Shown: in pieces, positions 8,806-41,936 of the stretch
How positions within the stretch are numbered: position 1 is the first letter of the stretch
Layout of the letters: the number at the start of each line of letters is the position of its first letter
Source of the DNA: Candidatus Marinacidobacterales bacterium
Lineage (GTDB): Bacteria; Acidobacteriota; Vicinamibacteria; Marinacidobacterales; SMYC01
Direction of reading: 5' to 3'
Length of the DNA: 64,000 nucleotides
NCBI GenBank assembly: GCA_965224085.1
Contig: CBDCYI010000005.1
Span: forward strand, 1,824,001 to 1,888,000
The notes under the pieces: generated by a model
What the model saw: only the letters and a program-made list of their open reading frames with translations
What the model was told of the DNA's origin: nothing
The model's database searches: none
Program-made: the position numbers and the translations under genes

Positions 8806-11298
<2,493 letters not shown>

Positions 11299-11354
11299 GA
11301 CCAGCGATCTAAAATCGACCCGCCCGATATTATTAGGTAATTCAGGAGTCAAGG

Positions 11355-13805
11355 ATGGCCACCACGGCTGAACGACTGCCCGTCAACATCGAAGACGAAA
11401 TGAAGCGGTCCTATATGGACTACGCGATGTCGGTCATCATTGGCCGCGCATTGCCGGACGTTCGCGACGGCTTGAAACCGGTCCATCGGCGGGTCCTCTA
11501 CGCGATGTACCGTGAAGGGCTCTTATCGAACCGGGCCTATTCAAAATGCGCGGGAATCGTCGGCGAGGTTCTCAAGAAATATCACCCGCATGGAGACTCC
11601 GCCGTCTACGACACGCTCGTCCGCATGGCACAGGACTTCAATCTGCGGACTCCGCTCATCGACGGCCAGGGAAATTTTGGCTCCGTAGACGGCGACCCAC
11701 CCGCGGCCTATCGATACACGGAAGCCCGTTTGACGGCGCTTGCCGAGAGCATGATGAGGGACATCGACAAGGATACCGTCGACTTCGTCCCGAATTTCGA
11801 TGGCAATACGGCGGAGCCCACCGTGCTGCCGACCGCCGCACCCAACTTGCTCGTCAACGGATCCGCGGGTATCGCGGTCGGAATGGCGACGAATATTCCG
11901 CCGCACAACCTCCGAGAAGTCGTGGACGGGATTCTCTACGCGCTCGAGAACCAGTCGATGGACGACGAGGAGCTCACGACGGGGCTTCTCGGGATCATCA
12001 AAGGCCCGGATTTTCCAACCGCGGCTTTCCTTCACGGACGTGGCGGGATCGAGCAGGCCTATCGCACCGGCCGCGGCTCGATTCAGCTGCGTGCCCGAGC
12101 GACGATCGAGGATACACGGAAAGACCGCCAGGCCATCATCATCACAGAAATTCCCTATCAAGTGAACAAAGCGAAACTCCAGGAGAAGATTGGCGAGCTC
12201 GTTCGCGACAAGAAGCTCGACGGTATCTCCGACATGAGGGACGAGTCCGATCGTCGCGGCATGCGGATTGTCATCGACTTGAAACGTGGCGAAGTCGGTC
12301 AGGTCGTCCTCAACAATCTTTACAAACATACGACGCTTCAAACGAGCTTCGGCATCATCCTTCTCGCGATCGTCGACAACCGCCCGAAGGTCCTCAAGCT
12401 CATCGAGGTGCTGCGTCTGTTCATCGACTTCCGTCGTGACATCGTTCGCAGGCGAACGGCCTACGAGCTCCGAAAAGCCGAAGCGCGCGCGCATATCCTC
12501 GAAGGCTTCGTCGTAGCACTCGACCATCTCGATGCCGTGATCGAGCTCATCCGTGCGTCGAAAGACCCCGCCGCGGCCCGTTCGGCTCTGATCGAGCAAT
12601 ACGAGCTCAGCGAGATCCAAGCCCAAGCGGTTCTCGATTTGCAGTTGCAACGGCTCACGGGGATGGAGCGCGACAAGATCATCACCGAGCACGAAGAGAT
12701 CCAAAAGCGCATCGCGGAGCTGAGGGCGATTCTGGCAAGTGCCACGAAGATCGACGCCATCGTTCGTGAAGAGCTCGAAGAAGTGAAAGAGAAGTTCGGA
12801 GAGGACCGTCGCACCGAGATCATCGCAAAAACGCAGGAGATCAGCGTCGAGGACATGATCGCCGAAGAGGACATGGTCATCACCGTGTCCCATTCCGGTT
12901 ATGTGAAGCGCAGCCCCCTCTCCGTCTACCGCAAGCAGAAACGCGGCGGCAAAGGCCGGAAGGGGATGCAGACGCGTGAAGAGGACTTTGTCGACCACCT
13001 CTTCATTGCCTCGACCCATGCGTACATCATGATATTCACCAACCACGGCAAGGTTTATTGGTTGAAGGTTCACGAGATCCCTGCGGTTGGCGCCGCCGGC
13101 AAAGGCAAGGCCATCGTGAACTTGGTCGCCATGCGGCCCGAGGAAACCCTCGCCGCCGTCTGTGCGGTGAAGGAATTCCCTGAGGACCGGTTCGTCCTTA
13201 TGGCGACAAGAAAAGGCACCATCAAGAAGACACCTTTGTCCTCCTTCAAAAACCCGAACGCGCGGGGCCTCATCGCGATCGCTATCGACACTGACGACGA
13301 GCTCATCGTGGCGGCGATCACCGAGGGCGACAGCCAGGTGGTTCTCGCCTCCCGCTCAGGTAAAACGATCCGATTCACGGAGACCGATGTCCGCATCACG
13401 GGGCGTACCACGCGGGGCGTGAGGGGCATCCGCCTCGGAGCAGGAGATGCTGTGGTGAGCATGGCGGTCGTAAACACCGAGGGAACGCTTTTGACCGTCA
13501 CCGAGAAAGGCTACGGGAAGAGGAGCCACGTCGAAAGCTACCGGTTCCAGACTCGCGGCGGCCAAGGCGTCATCAACATCAAAACCACGAAGCGCAACGG
13601 CGATGTTGTCGCCGTACCATTCGTGAACGACGAAGACGAAGTCATGGCCATCACCGCGCAAGGCATGATCCTCCGGCTGCGCGTCAAAGATTTCAACATT
13701 CTGGGCCGCATCACGCAGGGTGTACGGCTCATCCATCTCGATGAAGGGGATCAGGTGGTCGCGGTCGCAAAGCTCGCCGAGAAGGTCGACGACAACGGCA
13801 AGTGA
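11355..13805 (+). CDS. gyrA: DNA gyrase subunit A
   Basis: RALPDVRDGLKPVHRR, HPHGDSAVY, AAYRYTE, GyrA box QKRGGKG. Confidence 0.98.
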   Translation: MATTAERLPVNIEDEMKRSYMDYAMSVIIGRALPDVRDGLKPVHRRVLYAMYREGLLSNRAYSKCAGIVGEVLKKYHPHGDSAVYDTLVRMAQDFNLRTPLIDGQGNFGSVDGDPPAAYRYTEARLTALAESMMRDIDKDTVDFVPNFDGNTAEPTVLPTAAPNLLVNGSAGIAVGMATNIPPHNLREVVDGILYALENQSMDDEELTTGLLGIIKGPDFPTAAFLHGRGGIEQAYRTGRGSIQLRARATIEDTRKDRQAIIITEIPYQVNKAKLQEKIGELVRDKKLDGISDMRDESDRRGMRIVIDLKRGEVGQVVLNNLYKHTTLQTSFGIILLAIVDNRPKVLKLIEVLRLFIDFRRDIVRRRTAYELRKAEARAHILEGFVVALDHLDAVIELIRASKDPAAARSALIEQYELSEIQAQAVLDLQLQRLTGMERDKIITEHEEIQKRIAELRAILASATKIDAIVREELEEVKEKFGEDRRTEIIAKTQEISVEDMIAEEDMVITVSHSGYVKRSPLSVYRKQKRGGKGRKGMQTREEDFVDHLFIASTHAYIMIFTNHGKVYWLKVHEIPAVGAAGKGKAIVNLVAMRPEETLAAVCAVKEFPEDRFVLMATRKGTIKKTPLSSFKNPNARGLIAIAIDTDDELIVAAITEGDSQVVLASRSGKTIRFTETDVRITGRTTRGVRGIRLGAGDAVVSMAVVNTEGTLLTVTEKGYGKRSHVESYRFQTRGGQGVINIKTTKRNGDVVAVPFVNDEDEVMAITAQGMILRLRVKDFNILGRITQGVRLIHLDEGDQVVAVAKLAEKVDDNGK

Positions 13806-32323: not shown

Positions 32324-34573
32324 TCATTCTTCGACGATGCGCGCGTGGCAGGCGTGCGTAGCCTCGATGAACAGTTGCGCTTCCTCGATAAGGTGGTGCG
32401 CGTCGTCGGCGCTCAGACGGTCGAGCTCCTCTTCGTGGGCTCTGAACAGGTAGTGGGCGAACTTACCCTTTGCGAAGCGGTCGAAAAAAAGCCCGGTGTC
32501 GTAGAATCGACTTCGGAACTCGCCCACAATCCGCGCTGGCTCTCCGTTGTTGTCCGTGGTCTGGGTGTGCACCAGCGCTGCCGCCGCCGAAACCATGGCG
32601 TCGTACGCGCCCTCGGCCGCGCCACACGCATCACCACCCTCGAGTTTGAGCTGGGCCTCGAAGACGAGCCTTTCGCTCGCCGCGACCTCGAACGCGAACC
32701 GGGAGACGAGTTCACCCGCACACTCACCGCGCCCCATGTCCCCGATCGTGAACTCGCGCGGATCGCCCCAGTCGGAATAGAGAATCGAGTCTTCCTCGTA
32801 ACTGGGAACGACCATCAAGTCTTCGATTAGAGCGCGCACTTTTGCTTTACCCATGCTCCGAATCAACGCGGAGAACGTTTGCCCCGGCTGCGTCTCTCGC
32901 CGGTAGAGATCCGTGAGCCTCGTGACGACCTCAGGAATACGTTTCGACGGCACCGCCCCAATGGCCAGCCCGAACGATTTCGCGTTCTCGGTCCACTGGC
33001 CACCGAGAACGACCTGGAAGTGCGGGACCGTTCTTCCTTCGACCTGTCGACTGACTCCGTAAAAGCCGATGTCGGCAACGTGGTGCTGCCCGCACGAGTT
33101 GAAACATCCGCTCACTTTGATGTGAAGATCCTTCACGGCTTTATCGGAGGCGAGGTTCTGCCCCAGGAGACGGCTTCTGAGCTCGCCAGCGAGACCGCGC
33201 GATGACGCGATGCCGAGCTTGCAGGTATCGGTCCCGGGGCACGCGGTGACGTCGACGATCGTGCCGCCGCCGGGTTGACCGAGCCCGATCGATTCGAGCC
33301 GGGCGAAAAGCTCCGGAAGGTGCGCTTGTGCGATGAAGCGCAGCACGAAGTTTTGGTCCACGGTGGTGCGGAGGGGGTCGCCGCTGAGCCGGCGCGCAAT
33401 GTCGGCTAGCGCTCTTGCTTGGAACGCCGAGATGTCCCCGAGGGGGAGGGTGACGAGGGCTGCGGCGTAGCCCTCCTGGCGTTGAGGACGAACGTTCGTG
33501 GCCTTCCATGCGTCGAACTCTGCCGGCGCGTTCGCCTTGTCTCCGTCCGCCGTTAACGGCACCATCGTCGCGTTCTCGCCATCGTCGTCGCGCGCGTTCG
33601 AGTATTCCGTCCAGCGAGGATCCTGTGGCAATTGCTTCCGCTCTTCGAGGACGAGACGCCGGAGCTCTTCGATTCCCAGCTTGCCGACGAGAAACTTAAG
33701 GCGGGCCCGTGCGCGGTTCTTCTTCTCCCCGAGCCTGGCGAAAACGCGGCAGATAGCTTGGGCGGTGGGAAGGAGCTCCTCCTCGGGAAGGAACGGCTCG
33801 AACAGCTTCGCGGGATAAGGAACGGCGCCGAGACCGCCCCCGACATAGAGCTCGAATCCGCGGCGCGTGCGGCCTTCGCCGGTTCGGGTTCGGGCGATGA
33901 AGCCGAGATCGTGAAACGTCGTGAGTCCGCAAGGCTCGTCCTTGCAGCCGGAAAAAGCAATCTTGAACTTGCGACCGAAGTCCTGCGCGTCCGGATGACC
34001 GAGCAGAAAATAGGCCAGCGCCCTCGCGTAGGGTGTGACATCGAACGTTTCACCTTTGCAGACGCCGGCTAAAGGACAAGCGGTCACGTTCCGCACCGAG
34101 TTGCCACAGGCCTCGCGTGTCGTGATACCAACTGCGGCAAGACGCCGCATGACGTCGGGCGTATCCTCGATATGAACATAGTGAAGCTGGAAGTCCTGGC
34201 GCGTCGTGACGTGAAGCACACCGACGGAGTACTCTTCGGCGAGTTCTGCCAAGACGTCGAGCTGATCCGGTGTGATTCTCCCGAACGGTATCTTGATCCG
34301 CTGCATCCCGGGTGCGTCCCAAAGCGTTTGCGGGCCCTTGGTGAGCTCCCCGGACGGGTAGCCGAGCACGCGTGGCCGGTTGCCGTCATGGCGCTGGCCG
34401 TTGTCGTAGCGTTGCCCATAGACGCCGCGTCGCAGCCGGCTTTCGGCGAAGAGCTTCTCATTGAGCTTGTCTTGCCGGCGAAGCTCGAGCTCCGTCTCAT
34501 AGATGTCGATCTCACGCCCGAGCGCGGCCGGGATACGGCTCTCGAGCTGTTCTCTCCAGGTCGGGATACTCAT
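32324..34573 (-). CDS. Siroheme-dependent sulfite/nitrite reductase with C-terminal extension
   Basis: RLRRGVYGQR, VTTRQDFQLH, ACGNSVRNV, RKFKIAFSGC, ACPGTDTC, SGCFNSCGQH; RBS GGAG before ATG 34573. Confidence 0.92.
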   Translation of the reverse strand: MSIPTWREQLESRIPAALGREIDIYETELELRRQDKLNEKLFAESRLRRGVYGQRYDNGQRHDGNRPRVLGYPSGELTKGPQTLWDAPGMQRIKIPFGRITPDQLDVLAELAEEYSVGVLHVTTRQDFQLHYVHIEDTPDVMRRLAAVGITTREACGNSVRNVTACPLAGVCKGETFDVTPYARALAYFLLGHPDAQDFGRKFKIAFSGCKDEPCGLTTFHDLGFIARTRTGEGRTRRGFELYVGGGLGAVPYPAKLFEPFLPEEELLPTAQAICRVFARLGEKKNRARARLKFLVGKLGIEELRRLVLEERKQLPQDPRWTEYSNARDDDGENATMVPLTADGDKANAPAEFDAWKATNVRPQRQEGYAAALVTLPLGDISAFQARALADIARRLSGDPLRTTVDQNFVLRFIAQAHLPELFARLESIGLGQPGGGTIVDVTACPGTDTCKLGIASSRGLAGELRSRLLGQNLASDKAVKDLHIKVSGCFNSCGQHHVADIGFYGVSRQVEGRTVPHFQVVLGGQWTENAKSFGLAIGAVPSKRIPEVVTRLTDLYRRETQPGQTFSALIRSMGKAKVRALIEDLMVVPSYEEDSILYSDWGDPREFTIGDMGRGECAGELVSRFAFEVAASERLVFEAQLKLEGGDACGAAEGAYDAMVSAAAALVHTQTTDNNGEPARIVGEFRSRFYDTGLFFDRFAKGKFAHYLFRAHEEELDRLSADDAHHLIEEAQLFIEATHACHARIVEE

Positions 34574-35120
34574 GCAAGAACTCCTTTTGATGAGACATGC
34601 CCTTTCGATATGGGCTCGGCGAGGCGCACGACGTCTCCAATGACGATCACGCCGGGTGCGCCGGGGAGAGGCACGGCAACGCGGGAGAGCGCCGCGATCG
34701 TTCCGGTCCACACGGCGGCTTCGGGGGAGGAAGCGTTACAAGTGATAGCGGCCGGGGTCGTTTGGCTCCAGCCGCGCTCGATCAAACACCTGGCGAGCGT
34801 CGCCCGAGTCGCCAAGCCCATCAGCACGACGAGCGTCGCTCGGTGAGGGGTTACCGAGTCGAGTACTTCGACGAGAGCTTCCGTGCTGTGGCCCGACAGC
34901 ACGACGAACGCCGAGGTGACGCCGCGGTGCGTCAACGGCACCCCGGCGAGCGCGGGCGCCGCGAGCGCCGAGCTGATGCCGGGAACGATCTCGTAGGCTA
35001 CGCCCCGCTTCGCCGAGAGCGAGTGCTTCCTCACCGCCTCGACCAAAAACGAACGGGTCACCACCCTTCAGGCGAACGACACGGTCGCCTCCGCGGGCGA
35101 GATGGATCATGAGCTGATGG
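34570..35120 (-). pseudogene. Uroporphyrinogen-III C-methyltransferase domain (CysG/CobA), 5' part lost, frameshifted
   Basis: [18 protein letters not shown] then [22 protein letters not shown]. Confidence 0.85.
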
Positions 35121-35563
35121 ATGGCTCTCTACGCCGCCTTTGACACGAAGACGGGGGAAGTTTTTGGCAAGACCGTCCGCCGACATACCAGCCAGGAGTT
35201 TGTCGCCTTCTTGGAGCAGCTGGTGCGAGCCACAAGCGAAAGCGTGAAATTCACGTCATCCTCGACAATCTCTCGGCCCACAAAACTGCCAAGGTCACCG
35301 AGTTCCTCCAGGCCAATCCGAAACTCCAATTGCACTTCACACCCACCTACTCCTCCTGGCTGAACAAAGTCGAGCCCTGGTTCTCCAAGATCGAGCGCGA
35401 CCTGATCCATCGAGGAGTGTTCACCTCCACCAAAGACCTAACCCGCAAGATCATGCGCTACATTCGCAAGTACAACAAAGACCCTAAGCCCGTGAAGTGG
35501 ACCTACAACGATCCGTCACGGCGCATCAAAACTACTAAACGTTCAGCTGTTACAGTCCACTAG
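35121..35563 (+). mobile_element. IS630-family remnant (3' part)
   Basis: [32 protein letters not shown]; ends ACAGTCCACTAG. Confidence 0.85.
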
Positions 35564-36019
35564 TTGCCGCCACCGCCCGAGGTCGCGAGGGAGGAGCGCA
35601 TCGAGACCCTCGCGCAGCAGCCGAGACAATGCAGGCGCCGACCCATCCGTCGAGATACTCAAAGTGACACCCGAGCGGCGGAGAACAGCACCGGCGTAGG
35701 CGCTGCAAGATGCCTTGTCGTCCACGGCGATCACGAACTGATGCCGTCTCTCGGCGCCCGTCGCGACGAGGCGATTGATCTTCGGCGTTGCCGCAGCCAT
35801 CACGAGCCAAGCATCGTCGAGATCGTGAAAGTAGAAGGCGCGAAGACGCACGGTCAGGTTCGGGTGGGTCCAGAAAAAGCCCACCGACGGGGCGACAAGG
35901 GTGACCCGCGCCCCTGCGTCCAGAAGGCCTCTCGTCTTGGACTCCGCCACGGTGCCGCCGCCGCCGACAAGGATGTCGCGTCCGTCGAGGCCTAGAAAAA
36001 CCGGAAACATTGCCGGCAT
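35564..36019 (-). pseudogene. cysG: Siroheme synthase N-terminal dehydrogenase/chelatase part, cut by IS630
   Basis: MFPVFLGLDGRDILVGGGGTVAESK, ISTDGSAPALSRLLRE; RBS AGGAG. Confidence 0.82.
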
Positions 36020-36031
36020 GATCTTGCTCCT

Positions 36032-36074
36032 AAAATGAAAAAGGCCCAGCTCCCGAAAAGGGGAAGCTGGGCCT
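36032..36074 (-). terminator. Intrinsic terminator (attenuator) in the cysG leader
   Basis: Minus strand AGGCCCAGCTTCCCC-TTTTC-GGGAGCTGGGCC followed by TTTTTCATTTT, just upstream of the cysG RBS. Confidence 0.85.
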
Positions 36075-36097
36075 CAATCGCCGCGTCGATAACCGAT

Positions 36098-36226
36098 CTA
36101 CATAATTACCTGAAAGCTCGGGCTTGTCGCCTGGTCGCCCAGCGTCGCCCCGATACGATGCAGCAATTCCTCGAAAGGCCCAGTCCCACTGGGCCTGTTA
36201 CACTCGCAACCAAAGAAAATTGCCAT
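36098..36226 (-). CDS. Putative 42-aa Cys-containing leader peptide
   Basis: Manual translation MAIFFGCECNRPSGTGPFEELLHRIGATLGDQATSPSFQVIM*; GAGAG 7 nt before ATG; lies between a promoter and a terminator. Confidence 0.7.
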   Translation of the reverse strand: MAIFFGCECNRPSGTGPFEELLHRIGATLGDQATSPSFQVIM

Positions 36227-36251
36227 CGCCAAACTCTCGAATCAGAGATCC

Positions 36252-36280
36252 AATATGACCGAATGCATCGGCGTTGTCAA
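36252..36280 (-). promoter_or_regulatory. Sigma70-type promoter
   Basis: TTGACA (36280-36275), 17-nt spacer, CATATT (36257-36252). Confidence 0.65.
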
Positions 36281-36291
36281 GATACCGCCCT

Positions 36292-37854
36292 CTATTCTTG
36301 AATATAGCCGAGTGCCTTGAGCTGCTCGATGGCCGCCGGGTCGAGACCTTCGAGCTCGCCTTGTTCCCCGGCTGTGTTGGCGTCGCGGGCCGGATCTCCT
36401 TCCACCCAAGCGCGAAGTATCGGCACGAGCCTAAAAGCCTCACCGGGAAGCTCGTCGTAGAGGTTTCGGGACTCTTCTGGATCGCTCACGATGTCGTAGA
36501 GCTCGTAGCGGTCGCCATCGGGATGGGGGATCTTGATGAGCTTCCAGCGCTCGGTGCGAAGGCTCCGCCACTTGCCGCGGATGCCTTCGAAGTAGATGCG
36601 CTCCTGCTCCGGGAACATGCGGCGCTTCGGAGCGCTCTCCGCGAAAGCGCTCAGAAACGGCAGACTCCCGCCTTCGAGTAGGGGCGCGAGGCTGGTCGCT
36701 TCGACGCCGTCGAAAGGATCGAGCTCCGCGAGCTCGAGAAGCGTCGGCCCGACGTCCATGAGGCGGACTTGCTGCTCAATTTCGGTGCCGGGCTCGATCA
36801 CGCCCGGGTAGCGGATCACGAGCGGCACGCGCAGGACTTCATCGTAGAGCACGAAGTCGTGGGTGAAGGAAAGGCCGTGCTCGCCCAACGCTTCTCCGTG
36901 GTCGGCGGTGACGGCAACAACGGTCGACGCTTCGAGCTCGAGCGCGTCGAGCGCGTTCAGGATCCTGGCGAGGTTGTCGTCCGTATAGGCGATCGCGCCG
37001 TCGTAGAGATCGCGCACTTCGCGAACGTCGTTCTCTCGGTAGCTCCCGTCGTCGAAGAAGATGCTCCCACGCGAGCGCCGCCAAAAGGCGAGATCGAGAA
37101 GGATGGAGTTTTTGGCGTAGTAGGGAAAGACGAGGTCGTAATAGGGGCCACCGGAAATGTCCGCATAAGGTGTTGGCTGGTAGCTCGCGCGATCGAGTTC
37201 CATCATGGCGCGTAGATGCTTGACACGCCCGTCCGCGGCGTATGCTTCGTGGAAGAGCACTGCATACGGGTAGGCCGGCGTATAAGGAAGATGGGGGTCC
37301 AGAAAGTGGAGCCAGAGGAAAAACGGCTTTTCGGGATCCCGCGCTTCGAGCCAATCAGTCGCGGCGAGCGAGAGGCTCCGCGCGTCCAGTCCCGCGGCGA
37401 ACTTGTTGTTGTGATACGCGTCGAAGCCTTGGTCGAGCCCCGAATTTCGGCGCAGCCACGTGTGCCGCGTCATCGCCGCCGTTTGATAGCCCGCTTCGTG
37501 GAAACGCTCGGCGAGGGTCTCGATCTCGGTCGCGAGTGTTGCGGGGTGGTTCCGCACACCATGATGGGGCGGCGTCCGTCCCGTCATCAGTGAAGTCACC
37601 GAAGGCAGCGTGAAGGGGGCTTGAGCGATGGTCGTCGCGAAACGTGCGCCTTCGGCTGCCAAACGATCGAGGTTCGGCGTCGTGTTCCGCGAGTAGCCGT
37701 AGCTTCCGACGTGATCGGCCCTGAGCGTCTCGATGGTGACGAGCAGAACATTTGGCTGCGCCCGATGCATGGAGGTCGCGGCGCTTTCTTCCGACCGCGG
37801 TTCGCATGCGGCCGCGAGGAGAGCTAAAAGAAGGACGAGCCGGGGGAAGCTCAA
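36292..37854 (-). CDS. Sulfatase-family lipoprotein
   Basis: Lipobox LAAAC, PNVLLVTIETLRADH, TTPNLD, LHFLDPHLPY, TADHGE, LRVPLVI; probable TTG start. Confidence 0.85.
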   Translation of the reverse strand: MSFPRLVLLLALLAAACEPRSEESAATSMHRAQPNVLLVTIETLRADHVGSYGYSRNTTPNLDRLAAEGARFATTIAQAPFTLPSVTSLMTGRTPPHHGVRNHPATLATEIETLAERFHEAGYQTAAMTRHTWLRRNSGLDQGFDAYHNNKFAAGLDARSLSLAATDWLEARDPEKPFFLWLHFLDPHLPYTPAYPYAVLFHEAYAADGRVKHLRAMMELDRASYQPTPYADISGGPYYDLVFPYYAKNSILLDLAFWRRSRGSIFFDDGSYRENDVREVRDLYDGAIAYTDDNLARILNALDALELEASTVVAVTADHGEALGEHGLSFTHDFVLYDEVLRVPLVIRYPGVIEPGTEIEQQVRLMDVGPTLLELAELDPFDGVEATSLAPLLEGGSLPFLSAFAESAPKRRMFPEQERIYFEGIRGKWRSLRTERWKLIKIPHPDGDRYELYDIVSDPEESRNLYDELPGEAFRLVPILRAWVEGDPARDANTAGEQGELEGLDPAAIEQLKALGYIQE

Positions 37855-37861
37855 AGAAACG

Positions 37862-40354
37862 TCAGGTGTTGTGCCCCCGCCCCGACGCGGGAATGGGTTG
37901 CGAGGCGAGCGCGACCGCGGTGACGACGCTGTCGTCCTGGAGCGAGATGAGAACGTGGTCGCCCTTTTTGATGTCACCGCTGATGAGCTGTTGGGCGAGG
38001 ATGTTCTCGAGCTGTGCTTCCATCGCACGGCGTAGAGGTCTTGCACCATAGACGGGATCATAACCGTCAGCGGCGAGTTTATCCTTCACCGCGTCCGTGA
38101 CTTGAATCGCTAAGTTCTGCTCCGCGAGGCGCTCGTTCAAATCATCGAGCGACAGGTCGACGATCTGGCGGATGTGCTCCCTATCGAGTTGATGGAACAC
38201 GATCAGGTCGTCGATGCGGTTCAGAAGCTCTGGCCTGAAGACCGTTTTGACCTCGCGCATCACACGGTCTTTGATCTCTTCGTACCTTCGTGAGGAGACC
38301 GGGCTCGAAAAACCGATGCCGGCAGATTCGCGTGTGACGTCCTCGCTGCCGATGTTAGACGTGGCGATGATGATCGTGTTGACGAAGCTGACCGTGCGTC
38401 CTTGCGCGTCCGTCAAACGACCGTCTTCCAGAATCTGCAGCATCATGTGATAAACGTCGGGATGCGCCTTCTCGAACTCGTCGAGAAGGATCACGCTGTA
38501 CGGGTTGCGCCTGACTTGCTCGGTGAGCTGCCCGCCTTCGCCGTAGCCGATATAGCCTGGAGGCGAGCCGATCATCTTGGAGACCGAGTGGCGCTCCATG
38601 TACTCGCTCATGTCGAGCCGGATGAGCCGCTCTTCGTCGTCGAGCAAAAATTGCGCGAGCGCTTTGGCGAGCTCCGTCTTCCCTACGCCCGTGGGTCCAA
38701 GAAAAATGAACGATCCGATCGGTCGCTTGCGGCCCTTGAGGCCCGCGCGATTTCGCCTTATGGCGTCGGAGACCGCGTGGACAGCGTTCTCCTGGCCGAC
38801 GATGCGTTGGTGGATGTTGTCTTCCATCCGCGTGAGCTTTTGCGCTTCGGATTCGAGCATACGCGTGACAGGAATGCCCGCCCAGCCTTGCACGACGCGT
38901 GCGATGTCCTCGGTCTCGACTGTCGCATCCTGTGGATCGCGGCTTTCGCGCCATGTTTTCATCATTTGTTTGAGGTCGCCCTCCAGTCGCATGATGTTTT
39001 GCTGGCAGACGGCCGCTCGCTCGTAATCCTGTGATTGGTAGGCCTCTCGTTGCTGCGAGATCAGCTTGTCCCGATCGCGCTTGGCGCGACGGACCTCGGG
39101 CGGCGCATAGACGAGCTCGAGATGTTTGCGCGAGCCCGCTTCATCCAGAAGATCGATCGCTTTGTCGGGAAGGAATCGGTCCGCGATATAGCGCTCCGCT
39201 AGCTTGGCCGCGGAATCGACGGCGTCGTTGCTGAAGCTGACGTTGTGATGGACCTCGTAGTGTCGCTGAAGGCCTTTCAGGATGCGCACCGTGTCCGAAA
39301 CCGTTGGCTCTTTGATCATGATGCTCTGGAACCGGCGCTCGAGTGCTTTGTCCTTCTCGATGTGTTTCTTGTAATCCTCGAGCGTGGTGGCGCCGATGCA
39401 GCGGAGCTGCCCGCGCGCCAGCGCGCTCTTCAGCATGTTGGACGCGTCGAGGCCGCCTTCGACATTGCCGGCGCCGACGACGGTGTGGAGCTCATCGATG
39501 AAGAGGATGACGCGCCCCTGCGCCGCGAGGACCTCCTCCTTGATGGTCTTGAGCCGTTCTTCGAACTCACCACGAAACTTAGAGCCGGAGACCACTTCGC
39601 TCATCTCGAGAAGCAGAACGCGCTTATTGGCGAGCGTGTCGGGAACTTCGGCGGTCACGATGCGCTGGGCGAGACCTTCGACGATGACCGTTTTGCCGAC
39701 GCCGGGCTCGCCGATGAGCACCGGGTTGTTCTTCTTACGACGCAACAGGATCTGGATGAGGCGATGGATCTCTTCCTCACGACCGATGACAGGGTCGAGC
39801 GAGCCTTTGCGGGCGAGCTCGGTGAGGTCCGTCGTGTACTTTTTGAGCGTCTCGAGCTTCGTGTCGCCACGCTTGTCGTCGACGGTCCGGCTTCCACGCT
39901 GCCGGAGATAGGCGTCTTTCGTGCGCTCGTAGCGGAAGCCGAGGTCGCGCAGGATGCGCGCCGAGAGACCCGCGGGTTCGCGATGGAGCGCTAAGAGCAT
40001 AGCGCCGACACCGACGAAGCGGTCTCCCAAATTGTCGGCTTCCTCTTTCGCCATACGGAGCACTTCTGCTGTCTGTGGCGAGACGAGGATTTGGAGCGAG
40101 CCTTCACGGCGCAATTTCAGCTTGTTGCGTTGGGCCGAGAGGATCAGGTCGACGATGGACTGTTTCGTCTCATCCGCCGAGTGACCGAGATCCCCCACCA
40201 GACGTATCGTCTCGGAGTTGTCTTGCTCTAGAAGCCCGAGAAGGATGAATTCTGGCGTGAGCTCGTTCTGCCTCAGGTTGACGAGCTCCATGGAGCCGAT
40301 ATTGACGGCCTCGATCACACGCTCCGTGCAATGACGAAAGAGGACATTGTTCAT
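37862..40354 (-). CDS. clpC: ATP-dependent Clp protease ATP-binding subunit
   Basis: Clp-N repeats, [18 protein letters not shown]-like middle domain, [24 protein letters not shown]. Confidence 0.9.
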
Positions 40355-40506: not shown

Positions 40507-41936
40507 ATTGAACTAAGCCGCCCAGCTAGCGGCAACTATGCATAAATTGGAGTGAGAAGACGGTCGGACAGGAAGTCGGAGTTGGACGTCAGGGAGTTGC
40601 GAATCGACAGAGATATGGCGGGGAAGATAGAAGAAGGGCCTACCCGGTGCGGTAACCACCACGGTAGCGTTATGAGTTCGCGACGAGACACACGAGTCCG
40701 TTTCAACGACCGGTCGGCGTTGTGAGAGGCGGAGCGAAAGCATCGTGATCATGACTCATCTGGAGGGGAGCGGATCTGGAGGTTGATCCGTCGAAGCTTC
40801 GTGGAGAGAGGGCATCGGAGCATGCGACCTTTCTTGCAGCGGGGACAGATGGTGAGGTCGATGCCGGTGAGCTCCTTGAGCCGCTCGCGCCAGTCCTTGT
40901 CCTCGGTGGCACGCGAGCTGACTTGCACGTCGTCGGCGTCGGTCGTGGGTTTTGTTTTCTCATCGAGCAACTGGCGCGCGACTACGAGCTTGGTGGTCGC
41001 ATTGGAGGAGGCCATTAAGCCGAAATGGCGAATCTTGACGAAACCTTTCGGCAGTACGTGCAGGAGGAAACGGCGGATAAATTCCTCTGGGGGGACGGTA
41101 ACGGTATTACCATTCTTGGTGGCGAAGCAGACGCCGTAGTGGTCGATGCGAATGAGTCGGCGGTTGGAGATGCCGACCCGGTGGGTATATCGGCCGAGGT
41201 AGTTGAAAACCTGCTCTGGGCCACCGAAGGGTCGTTTGCTGTAAACGACCCAATCGATGCGGTAGAGCTTGTCTTTCAGCTCCCGGAAGCGAGGTGGGTT
41301 TCTGAGGTGGGAAGCGTTTGCGCTCAACTCAAGCTCATCTTGGTCGTAAGCGAGCCTAAGGGCATCGAGAAACTTGCTGCGAAAAAGCCGCGACATGGCC
41401 TTGACGGGAAACAGAAAGCGAGGGTTTGCGGCGTTCCACAGCTGCTGAGGGTGGTTGAGCCCGCCCCCGGAGACGATGCAATGCAGGTGTGGATGGAACA
41501 GGAGCTTCCGGGTCCAGGTGTGCAGTACGGCGGTGAAGGCAAGTTGAGCTTCGAGCCGGCTTTGGCCGAACTCCAATAGAGTTCGCGAGGCGGCGCGAAA
41601 CAGGAGGTTGAACATGAACTTGGGATTGTCTCGGGCGAGAGGCTTGAGTTGCTGCGGGAGGGTGAAAACGACGTGGAAATAGTGAGTCGGAAGAATCCTC
41701 TGAGCTCGCTGCTCCATCCACTTCGCCTGGGCTAGGCTCTGACACTTGGGACAGTGCCGATTGCGGCACGAGTTAAACGAAGGCGCCGCGTATCCGCAAG
41801 CGTTACACACGTCGAGATGGCCACCTAGCACCGCCGTGCGACAGTTCTCTATAGCCCACATCACCTTGCGCTGCTCGGCTGTCAGCGCATGGGTTTGGCG
41901 AAAGCGTGGACCATGTTCGCGGAAGATTTCCGCGAT
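40507..41936 (-). mobile_element. IS91-family element, 5' end truncated; transposase 40749 to ~41936
   Basis: CRTAVLGGH, NSCRNRHCPKC, HVVFTLP, LHTW..HPHLHC, YLGRYTHR, FLLHVLPKGFVKIRHFG; hairpin and GGCTTAGTTCAA end near 40507. Confidence 0.88.

Follow-up and report, generated by a model that had tools for sequence, protein, structure and literature searches.

The window, a 64-kb stretch of DNA from a Candidatus Marinacidobacterales bacterium, carries on its minus strand a candidate cysteine-sensing leader, followed by a sirC-like gene, a cobA-type uroporphyrinogen-III methyltransferase gene and a gene for a NirA-family sulfite/nitrite reductase haemoprotein, in that order (table 1). The order Marinacidobacterales belongs to the class Vicinamibacteria of the phylum Acidobacteriota. 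The original prediction, made from the letters of the window, had listed a TTGACA-17-CATATT promoter and a GAGAG ribosome-binding site (RBS), an open reading frame (ORF) of 42 aa whose only Cys are at codons 7 and 9, a perfect 9-bp hairpin one codon past the second Cys, and an intrinsic terminator that has an arm sequence in common with this hairpin. All of these were recovered at the expected minus-strand positions. Two other statements had to be amended. The genes behind the leader had been described as a cysG-sulfite reductase operon: the reductase gene is intact, but it is preceded by separate sirC-like and cobA genes instead of a fused cysG, and both are broken. The alternative pairing proposed for the arm common to the two hairpins was also found, but its strand is ~12 nt long (36187-36176) and not 8 nt.

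Table 1. Features of the leader and of its surroundings in the window
Feature	Position	Strand	Details
Promoter, sigma-70-like TTGACA-17-CATATT	36252-36280	-	-35 box 36280-36275, -10 box 36257-36252; 10 of 12 matches
5' mini-hairpin, 4 bp	36234-36247	-	Holds the Shine-Dalgarno (SD)-like GAGAG (36238-36234); consensus fold
Leader ORF, 42 codons + TAG (36100-36098)	36098-36226	-	Cys7 36208-36206, Cys9 36202-36200
Segment 1, 5' arm of hairpin 1 (anti-antiterminator)	36188-36196	-	Begins 3 nt past the Cys9 codon
Segment 2, loop GGG and 3' arm of hairpin 1; also the 5' antiterminator strand	36176-36187	-	
Spacer-closing helix, 5' strand	36160-36168	-	Pairs with 36084-36076; consensus fold
Spacer-closing helix, 3' strand	36076-36084	-	Directly 5' of the terminator
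Intrinsic terminator	36032-36075	-	Segment 3 36074-36062, loop 36061-36055, segment 4 36054-36042, U-run 36041-36032
sirC-like gene with its RBS, 158 aa (truncated); siroheme synthase N-terminal domain	35543-36031	-	NAD_binding_7; cysG_Nterm
DDE_3 (IS630-type) transposase gene fragment	35144-35560	+	PF13358, E = 3.8e-17
cobA remnant, without its ~70 first residues, changing frame	34570-35126	-	Intact L001 gene: 250 aa
NirA-family reductase haemoprotein gene, 749 aa, intact	32324-34573	-	
Sulfatase gene	36292-38061	-	Upstream of the leader
ClpB-like ATPase gene	37862-40354	-	Upstream of the sulfatase gene
IS91-type transposase gene (Y2_Tnp)	40749-41864	-	Upstream

The promoter of the leader is the sole promoter-like match in the 1.3 kb between positions 35500 and 36800, where shuffled sequences gave a mean of 0.2. 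The leader ATG (36226) is found ~19 nt past the predicted transcription start and 7 nt 3' of the GAGAG. Hairpin 1 is a perfect 9-bp stem (arms 36196-36188 and 36184-36176) with a 3-nt loop; the terminator stem (36075-36041) has 14 pairs, of which 9 are G-C, with a predicted energy of -27.2 kcal/mol, and the terminator ends 10 nt before the RBS AGGAG (36031-36027) of the next gene, which starts at ATG 36019. The arm sequence common to both hairpins is an octamer with nine copies in the window versus 1.82 expected, a number reached by none of 100 shuffles. This excess arises because the leader holds four copies; the remaining five fall within coding-like sequence and form no hairpins, for which reason a genome-wide repeat of the REP (repetitive extragenic palindromic) type was rejected. 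A third copy of the arm motif (36143-36137) was dropped because it is not conserved in relatives.

Relatives were sampled by a genome scan using the reductase as query, which yielded 80 loci. The closest reductase relatives (81% identity) come from metagenome-assembled genomes (MAGs) of Candidatus Marinacidobacterales, and three MAGs of this order, L001, L002, and L014, have the same leader. In L001 and L002, it is 74% identical to that of the window over ~275 nt and directly precedes an intact sirC-cobA-sir operon, while in L014, whose reductase is 66% identical, a more diverged leader precedes cysH (PAPS_reduct), followed by sirC-cobA-sir. The homology of the window with L001 and L002 starts at the -35 box, which indicates that promoter, leader, and operon behave as one module. 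All three relatives have kept the promoter (TTGACA-17-CAGAAT in L014), the start codon, Cys7-x-Cys9, a frame open to its ATG-TAG end, hairpin 1 and the terminator. The mini-hairpin that holds the GAGAG and may tune initiation on the leader ORF shows a single compensatory change (U-A to C-G) in L001 and is absent or unalignable in L014. Searches of the 80 loci by blastn and tblastn matched the leader in L001 and L002 only, the L014 copy being recognized by eye, and an nhmmer profile built from these four recovered no additional copy, either at the 80 loci or elsewhere in the window. A plasmid origin was also considered, but a megablast search of positions 35000-37500 against plasmids gave no match. 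At the peptide level, word-index and exhaustive profile searches returned three predicted database peptides only: P0001, P0002, and P0003, a frame-shifted form. The DNA comparisons below thus bear on four copies from one order (window, L001, L002, and L014), to which P0001 and P0002 are added for reading the Cys codons (n = 6).

Several lines of evidence suggest that the leader ORF is real. Its ATG is kept in the four DNA copies, each of which stays open in frame between this ATG and the ATG-TAG aligned at the end of the ORF (42, 46, 47, and 43 codons), even though the middle third of L014 cannot be aligned and the other copies differ by 3-nt and 12-nt indels. For a single sequence, such openness has a moderate probability of arising by chance, the interior being open in 468-929 of 2000 dinucleotide shuffles per sequence, to be multiplied by one third for the frame. 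The case for the ORF comes from the repetition of this openness across lineages and from P0001 and P0002, which differ by whole-codon indels, a comparison that is biased because both were ascertained as ORFs. Moreover, Cys7 and Cys9 are invariant in the six readable copies. By contrast, codon 8 (Glu or Lys) varies, as do codons 2-6, position 6 being also a Cys in L001 and P0001. The R-P-x-G-x-G stretch that follows C-x-C is conserved as well, and is the coding image of hairpin 1. This last point bears on the possibility that the ORF encodes a functional small protein, for instance a C-x-C metal- or redox-active peptide, the RNA structures being secondary. Such a protein would explain why the ORF is kept in all copies, why C-x-C-x-R-P-x-G-x-G is conserved, and why two of the peptide copies are called as genes in public data. 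However, R-P-x-G-x-G is precisely the part encoding hairpin 1, and the residue changes of L014 mirror compensatory base changes, whereas residues 2-6 and the whole C-terminal half are unconserved; L001 tolerates an internal frame shift, and the word-index and exhaustive profile searches revealed no family. We thus regard a small protein as highly improbable.

The RNA of the leader can adopt alternative pairings. Segment 2 repeats the terminator 3' arm (segment 4) with one base missing. It is therefore complementary to nearly all of the terminator 5' arm (segment 3), with which it can form ~12 bp with a small bulge (-23.3 kcal/mol in the window). In the four copies, predicted energies range from -11.8 to -17.3 kcal/mol for hairpin 1, from -19.9 to -26.4 kcal/mol for the 2:3 duplex and from -24.6 to -29.7 kcal/mol for the terminator. 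We modeled a ribosome stalled with Cys9 in its A site as a 28-nt footprint that extends to +15 from the P site; by geometry only, it would mask seven of the nine nucleotides of segment 1. When the nascent RNA (transcript cut at the terminator loop) was folded under this mask, the 2:3 helix formed in 4/4 copies, and without a ribosome segment 2 was held by segment 1 in 3/4. Between segments 2 and 3, a spacer of ~90 nt is closed by a helix that stacks beside the 2:3 helix; this closing helix is kept in the window, L001, and L002, and in L014 a helix is found at the same place, made from other bases.

The leader as a whole (226 nt) folds better than shuffled sequences (z = -3.28; 1 of 200 shuffles was equally good). 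Yet a search of positions 35900-36400 against Rfam 15 at E ≤ 10 gave no credible match: the best ones reached 14-15.5 bits (E = 1.4-8.9), versus gathering scores of 35.8-54.5. With such chance-level matches, membership of an Rfam family, including S-adenosylmethionine (SAM) riboswitches, T-boxes, and known leaders, was rejected. We also considered a riboswitch or another RNA-only sensor, for example of a sulfur metabolite, in which ligand binding to the folded spacer would set the choice between terminator and antiterminator, and the frame and its Cys codons would be incidental. The good folding of the leader is what one would expect from such a sensor, as are the stable stems of the spacer, closed by a conserved helix, and the several conserved blocks outside the hairpins; in addition, a frame of 25-30 codons is open in 23-46% of shuffles in such GC-rich DNA. 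However, apart from the lack of any Rfam match, the spacer is the least conserved part of the leader (a 12-nt indel, no possible alignment in L014) and no conserved ligand pocket is visible in it. An RNA-only sensor would also leave unexplained the invariant Cys-x-Cys, the ATG and in-frame TAG conserved in 4/4 copies, and the unmistakable poly-Cys leader ORFs that precede the orthologous gene elsewhere (see below), which makes it very unlikely in our view.

Base changes among the four copies, counted on their alignment, help to weigh the three pairings. Paired cells amount to 85% for hairpin 1, 100% of those with letters for the antiterminator, and 97.9% for the terminator, which is present in 4/4 copies. 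Column 67:75 of hairpin 1 reads G-C in L014 against A-U in the other three copies, and column 75:220 of the antiterminator reads C-G in L014 against U-A in the others; in the terminator, column 220:240 is A-U in two copies, A.C in L002, and G.U in L014, and column 222:238 changes from C-G to G-C in L014. In the latter, arms 1, 2, and 3 have thus changed together while arm 4 has not, and pairings 1:2 and 2:3 are both preserved: the change in arm 3 weakens the terminator pair, because segment 4 stays U (G.U), but keeps the antiterminator pair. Of all the evidence for the 2:3 pairing, this concerted change is the strongest single item.

The same change has a bearing on another explanation, in which the terminator is constitutive or controlled in trans (by a protein, a small RNA, or Rho/NusG), may partly provide the 3' end of the sulfatase transcript, and has acquired its resemblance to hairpin 1 by a local duplication that has nothing to do with Cys sensing. 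The arm sequences common to both hairpins are indeed such as a duplication would leave, the terminator is thermodynamically dominant in every full-length fold, and the sulfatase gene stops 12 nt before the -35 box without a terminator of its own, so that transcription could read into the leader. On the other hand, a change in arms 1, 2, and 3 that spares arm 4 favors selection on 1:2 and 2:3, hairpin 1 has no U-run in any copy, and the upstream context is different in L001 and L002, where homology begins at the -35 box. Moreover, the terminator sits right against the RBS of a biosynthetic operon and leaves no space for a promoter, which implies conditional readthrough. On the whole, we find this explanation unlikely. 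Hairpin 1 itself was excluded as a terminator of the sulfatase gene because it lacks a U-run and because the promoter sits between the two.

We consider it likely, from the comparisons above, that the leader is a classical ribosome-mediated transcription attenuator sensing charged tRNA-Cys. Transcription would start ~7 nt past the -10 box and a ribosome would load at the SD-like GAGAG and the ATG of the 42-codon ORF. When Cys-tRNA is plentiful, the ribosome would proceed toward the TAG, 23 nt before the terminator; behind it, segments 1 and 2 would form hairpin 1, leaving segment 3 free to pair with segment 4, and RNA polymerase would terminate at the U-run, which ends 10 nt short of the first structural gene's RBS. 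The same outcome is expected without translation of the ORF. Under scarcity of Cys-tRNA, the ribosome would stall with codon 7 or 9 in its A site and cover segment 1. Segment 2 would then stay single-stranded, the untranslated spacer would fold and its closing helix would set segment 2 beside segment 3, so that the ~12-bp antiterminator could form before segment 4 is made, allowing readthrough into sirC-cobA-sir. Because the spacer helix would join segments 2 and 3 only if no ribosome is translating the spacer, the length of the ORF would have a role of its own. Translation of the leader ORF, stalling at its Cys codons, the kinetic order of folding, and the part attributed to the spacer helix are all steps that we infer.

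Readthrough caused by a ribosome stalled at the Cys codons was the central proposal of the original prediction, and the conservation of the ORF, that of Cys7 and Cys9 in 4/4 DNA copies and two database peptides, the predicted 2:3 pairing in 4/4 copies, and the analogous poly-Cys leaders all speak in its favor. It had named as supporting signs the lack of an Rfam match, which was confirmed, and compensatory changes in the three arms, which L014 displays by the joint change of arms 1-3, but in one lineage and with weak shuffle controls. The fold with the first arm masked, which it had suggested, gave a mixed picture: the nascent RNA forms 2:3 in 4/4 copies, but the full-length fold keeps the terminator and L002 forms 2:3 unmasked.

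A number of points weigh against an attenuator. First, the sample comprises four DNA copies, all from one order, and this small number makes the covariation statistics weak: the observed score was reached by 22 and 43 of 500 shuffles in two controls, themselves weak, and the compensatory evidence for 2:3 amounts to one event in one lineage. Second, some copies are imperfect. L001 has -1 and -2 indels inside the ORF, 12 codons apart, that restore the frame; P0003 is frame-shifted; the L002 terminator has one A.C mismatch. These could be sequencing errors or signs of relaxed constraint. In the window, the sirC and cobA genes behind the leader are pseudogenes, and the leader may therefore be under relaxed selection there. 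Third, the sensor consists of two non-adjacent Cys codons, the ORF is unusually long for a leader (42-50 codons) and its SD sequence is weak. Fourth, full-length minimum free energy (MFE) folds keep the terminator under every ribosome mask, and 2:3 forms in the nascent RNA of L002 even without a ribosome. A thermodynamic switch is thus ruled out, nascent folds alone discriminating between the two states, and not in L002; as in classical attenuators, the decision must be kinetic. Finally, the support for attenuation is entirely computational.

The genes behind the leader have been rearranged in the window. Relative to L001 and L002, the homology is broken off at 35566-35127, where a DDE_3 transposase gene fragment, itself frame-shifted, has taken the place of the sirC 3' end and of the beginning of cobA. 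The sirC gene product is 189 aa long in L001, compared with the truncated form of the window, and the frame change of the cobA remnant, near position 35000, could be a real frameshift or an assembly error. The reductase ORF as listed (795 aa, 32324-34711, minus strand) is too long on its 5' side: the similarity to relatives begins only at about residue 47, and ATG 34573, which overlaps the cobA stop, is thus the probable start codon. The reductase scores below every curated NCBIfam equivalog cut-off, its best match being the NirA family, and that it is an assimilatory sulfite reductase is deduced from context, namely cysH in the L014 operon and the Cys leaders. Upstream, the sulfatase and ClpB-like ORFs overlap by ~200 nt as listed, and the sulfatase start is thus probably further downstream. 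Transposase genes lie near the operon both in the window and in L001 (DDE_Tnp_1; 9422-10411 on the minus strand and 10880-12910 on the plus strand of the locus); the neighborhood is prone to rearrangement, and synteny is lost beyond the leader-operon module.

At other loci, the orthologous reductase gene is very often preceded by another kind of Cys leader. For the 75 loci whose upstream sequence spans 350 nt or more, we examined the 350 nt before the reductase gene for poly-Cys small ORFs (sORFs), defined as ORFs of at most 80 aa in which a stretch of 5 codons includes 3 or more Cys, and found one in 38 of them (among L006-L080; e.g., L020 5806-5886, L028 5821-5907, and L061 5817-5897). The controls were far lower: 3/75 on the antisense strand, 0-5/75 for other two-codon residues, and 81 of 5004 background windows of 350 nt (1.6%). 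The poly-Cys loci are mostly from Acidobacteriota, two being labelled Chloroflexota, and their sORFs have 16-45 codons with runs of 3-6 Cys. With a relaxed finder, a stable hairpin and T-run was detected between sORF and gene in 38/38; with a crude but strict one, a terminator was found less than 160 nt upstream of the reductase gene in 21 of the 80 loci, and in 20 of these 21 a short ORF with a run of Cys codons stands just before it. The sORF stops 24-38 nt before the terminator arm in 18/20 loci, to be compared with 23 nt in the window. A TTGAC-N16-18-YAnnnT motif is present in 25/38 poly-Cys loci, and in 21 of these 25 the start codon is only 6-13 nt past the -10-like hexamer, which suggests that the sORFs are probably leaderless or nearly so, like mycobacterial polycysteine sORFs. 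Many loci without a poly-Cys sORF have another same-strand gene directly upstream, and a scan further upstream in the 42 loci without an adjacent poly-Cys sORF gave nothing convincing except L001.

These leaders and that of the window have in common the gene they precede, mostly the phylum, a TTGAC-type promoter, and a Cys sORF followed by a hairpin and a U-run. They differ in that the poly-Cys sORFs have runs of Cys codons and probably little or no 5' untranslated region (UTR), whereas the window has C-x-C and a 5' UTR. No sequence similarity between the two was detectable by blastn, tblastn, or nhmmer, and Rfam gave no match at gathering scores for ten poly-Cys loci. In ribosome-mask folds of the 20 strict-terminator poly-Cys leaders, the terminator arm paired upstream with or without the mask, so that the two states were not discriminated. 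In one subgroup (L019, L024, L037, L043, L052, L056, L064, L080, L034, L035, L055, L018, and L061), the last sORF codons of 13/13 leaders hold a G/U-rich stretch complementary to the conserved CCCACC in the terminator 5' arm. A ribosome at the stop codon would cover the antiterminator strand; as the blocks are invariant, they allow no covariation to be read. We treat the poly-Cys leaders as functional analogues, and not proven homologues, of the window leader; they look like a widespread, unannotated class of Cys attenuators.

The mechanism itself is not surprising, and the window leader is part of this much wider pattern of Cys leaders in Acidobacteriota. We lean somewhat toward a broader view, in which it would represent one lineage of an apparently undescribed "cysteine ribulon" that spans the phylum Acidobacteriota (plus the two Chloroflexota-labelled MAGs): about half of the sampled species would control assimilatory sulfite reduction by Cys-codon ORFs sensed by ribosomes and by intrinsic terminators, and Marinacidobacterales would have an architecture of its own, with C-x-C alone as the sensor, a 42-50-codon ORF that has to be translated through the entire spacer, and a closing helix that makes the antiterminator kinetically competent only if no ribosome is traversing the spacer. 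If true, sulfite reduction and siroheme synthesis would be coupled to cysteine supply by a simple rule that needs no regulatory factor, in a phylum that is abundant in soils and sediments, poorly cultured, and almost uncharted as regards regulation. Cys leaders may also help annotation, by marking NirA-family reductases as sulfite rather than nitrite reductases and by flagging unannotated small ORFs.

The novelty implied by the original prediction was overstated, since such attenuators with Cys codons have been published before, for mycobacteria and for cysS of Rhodobacterales. In Mycobacterium smegmatis, leader ORFs with Cys codons were shown to act as cysteine-responsive translational attenuators by Canestrari et al. 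(10.1101/834739), in whose study uORF (upstream ORF)-mediated attenuation for cysteine is stated to have been previously undescribed. As in our proposal, pausing at upstream Cys codons relieves the repression of cysteine-related operons, but the case tested there is leaderless, has consecutive Cys codons and works by sequestration of an RBS (10.1101/834739), whereas the window has a ~19-nt 5' UTR with an SD-like site, non-adjacent Cys codons, and an intrinsic terminator. The window element thus resembles the mycobacterial class at the sensing step and is not a member of it. Another counterpart is the uORFC-8-2 motif upstream of cysS in Rhodobacterales, whose two tandem Cys codons and intrinsic terminator are described as those of a likely attenuator of the ribosome-mediated type (Brewer et al. 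2021, PMC8632094). It shares with the window a conserved AUG, two conserved Cys codons and the terminator, but its tandem Cys are at about positions 14-15, inside the first stem, and it precedes a cysteinyl-tRNA synthetase gene in Alphaproteobacteria (PMC8632094). The window is set apart by a C-x-C (codons 7 and 9) that precedes the first stem, and by its sulfite-reduction and siroheme genes. Two Cys codons are reported to suffice or to be typical in known cases (10.1101/834739; PMC8632094). Candidate Cys leader peptides upstream of cys operons were also proposed in Actinobacteria by comparative genomics (Seliverstov et al. 2005, PMC1262725). They too are short Cys-codon ORFs before sulfur-assimilation operons, but they have Cys runs near the stop codon and no recognizable terminator (PMC1262725), whereas the window has a full terminator/antiterminator set.

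A full-text literature search, with subscription journals and supplements outside its scope, returned no report of such leaders for Acidobacteriota or for sulfite-reductase operons with terminators. Our element thus appears to be a textbook type of switch that is undescribed in Acidobacteriota. Judged by its sequence, it has every feature of a classical leader-peptide attenuator. As in the textbook trp, his, leu, thr, ilv, and pheA attenuators of enterobacteria, also summarized by Canestrari et al. (10.1101/834739), a promoter-proximal short ORF contains codons for the end product, four segments allow the mutually exclusive pairings 1:2, 2:3, and 3:4, segment 1 being the one that a stalled ribosome would mask, and an intrinsic terminator is located just before the first structural gene. 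Differences are that the window leader would sense Cys, by two codons that are one codon apart, and belongs to Acidobacteriota; that ORFs of its type are 42-50 codons long, span segments 1 and 2 and the spacer, and stop ~23-28 nt before the terminator; and that a conserved helix closes the ~90-nt spacer. The window leader and the enterobacterial attenuators have no sequence or Rfam relationship. So far, Cys attenuation had reached from translational control in mycobacteria to a predicted cysS motif in Alphaproteobacteria; if our reading of the window leader as an attenuator is true, Cys-specific ribosome-mediated attenuation would extend to classical termination control in another phylum.

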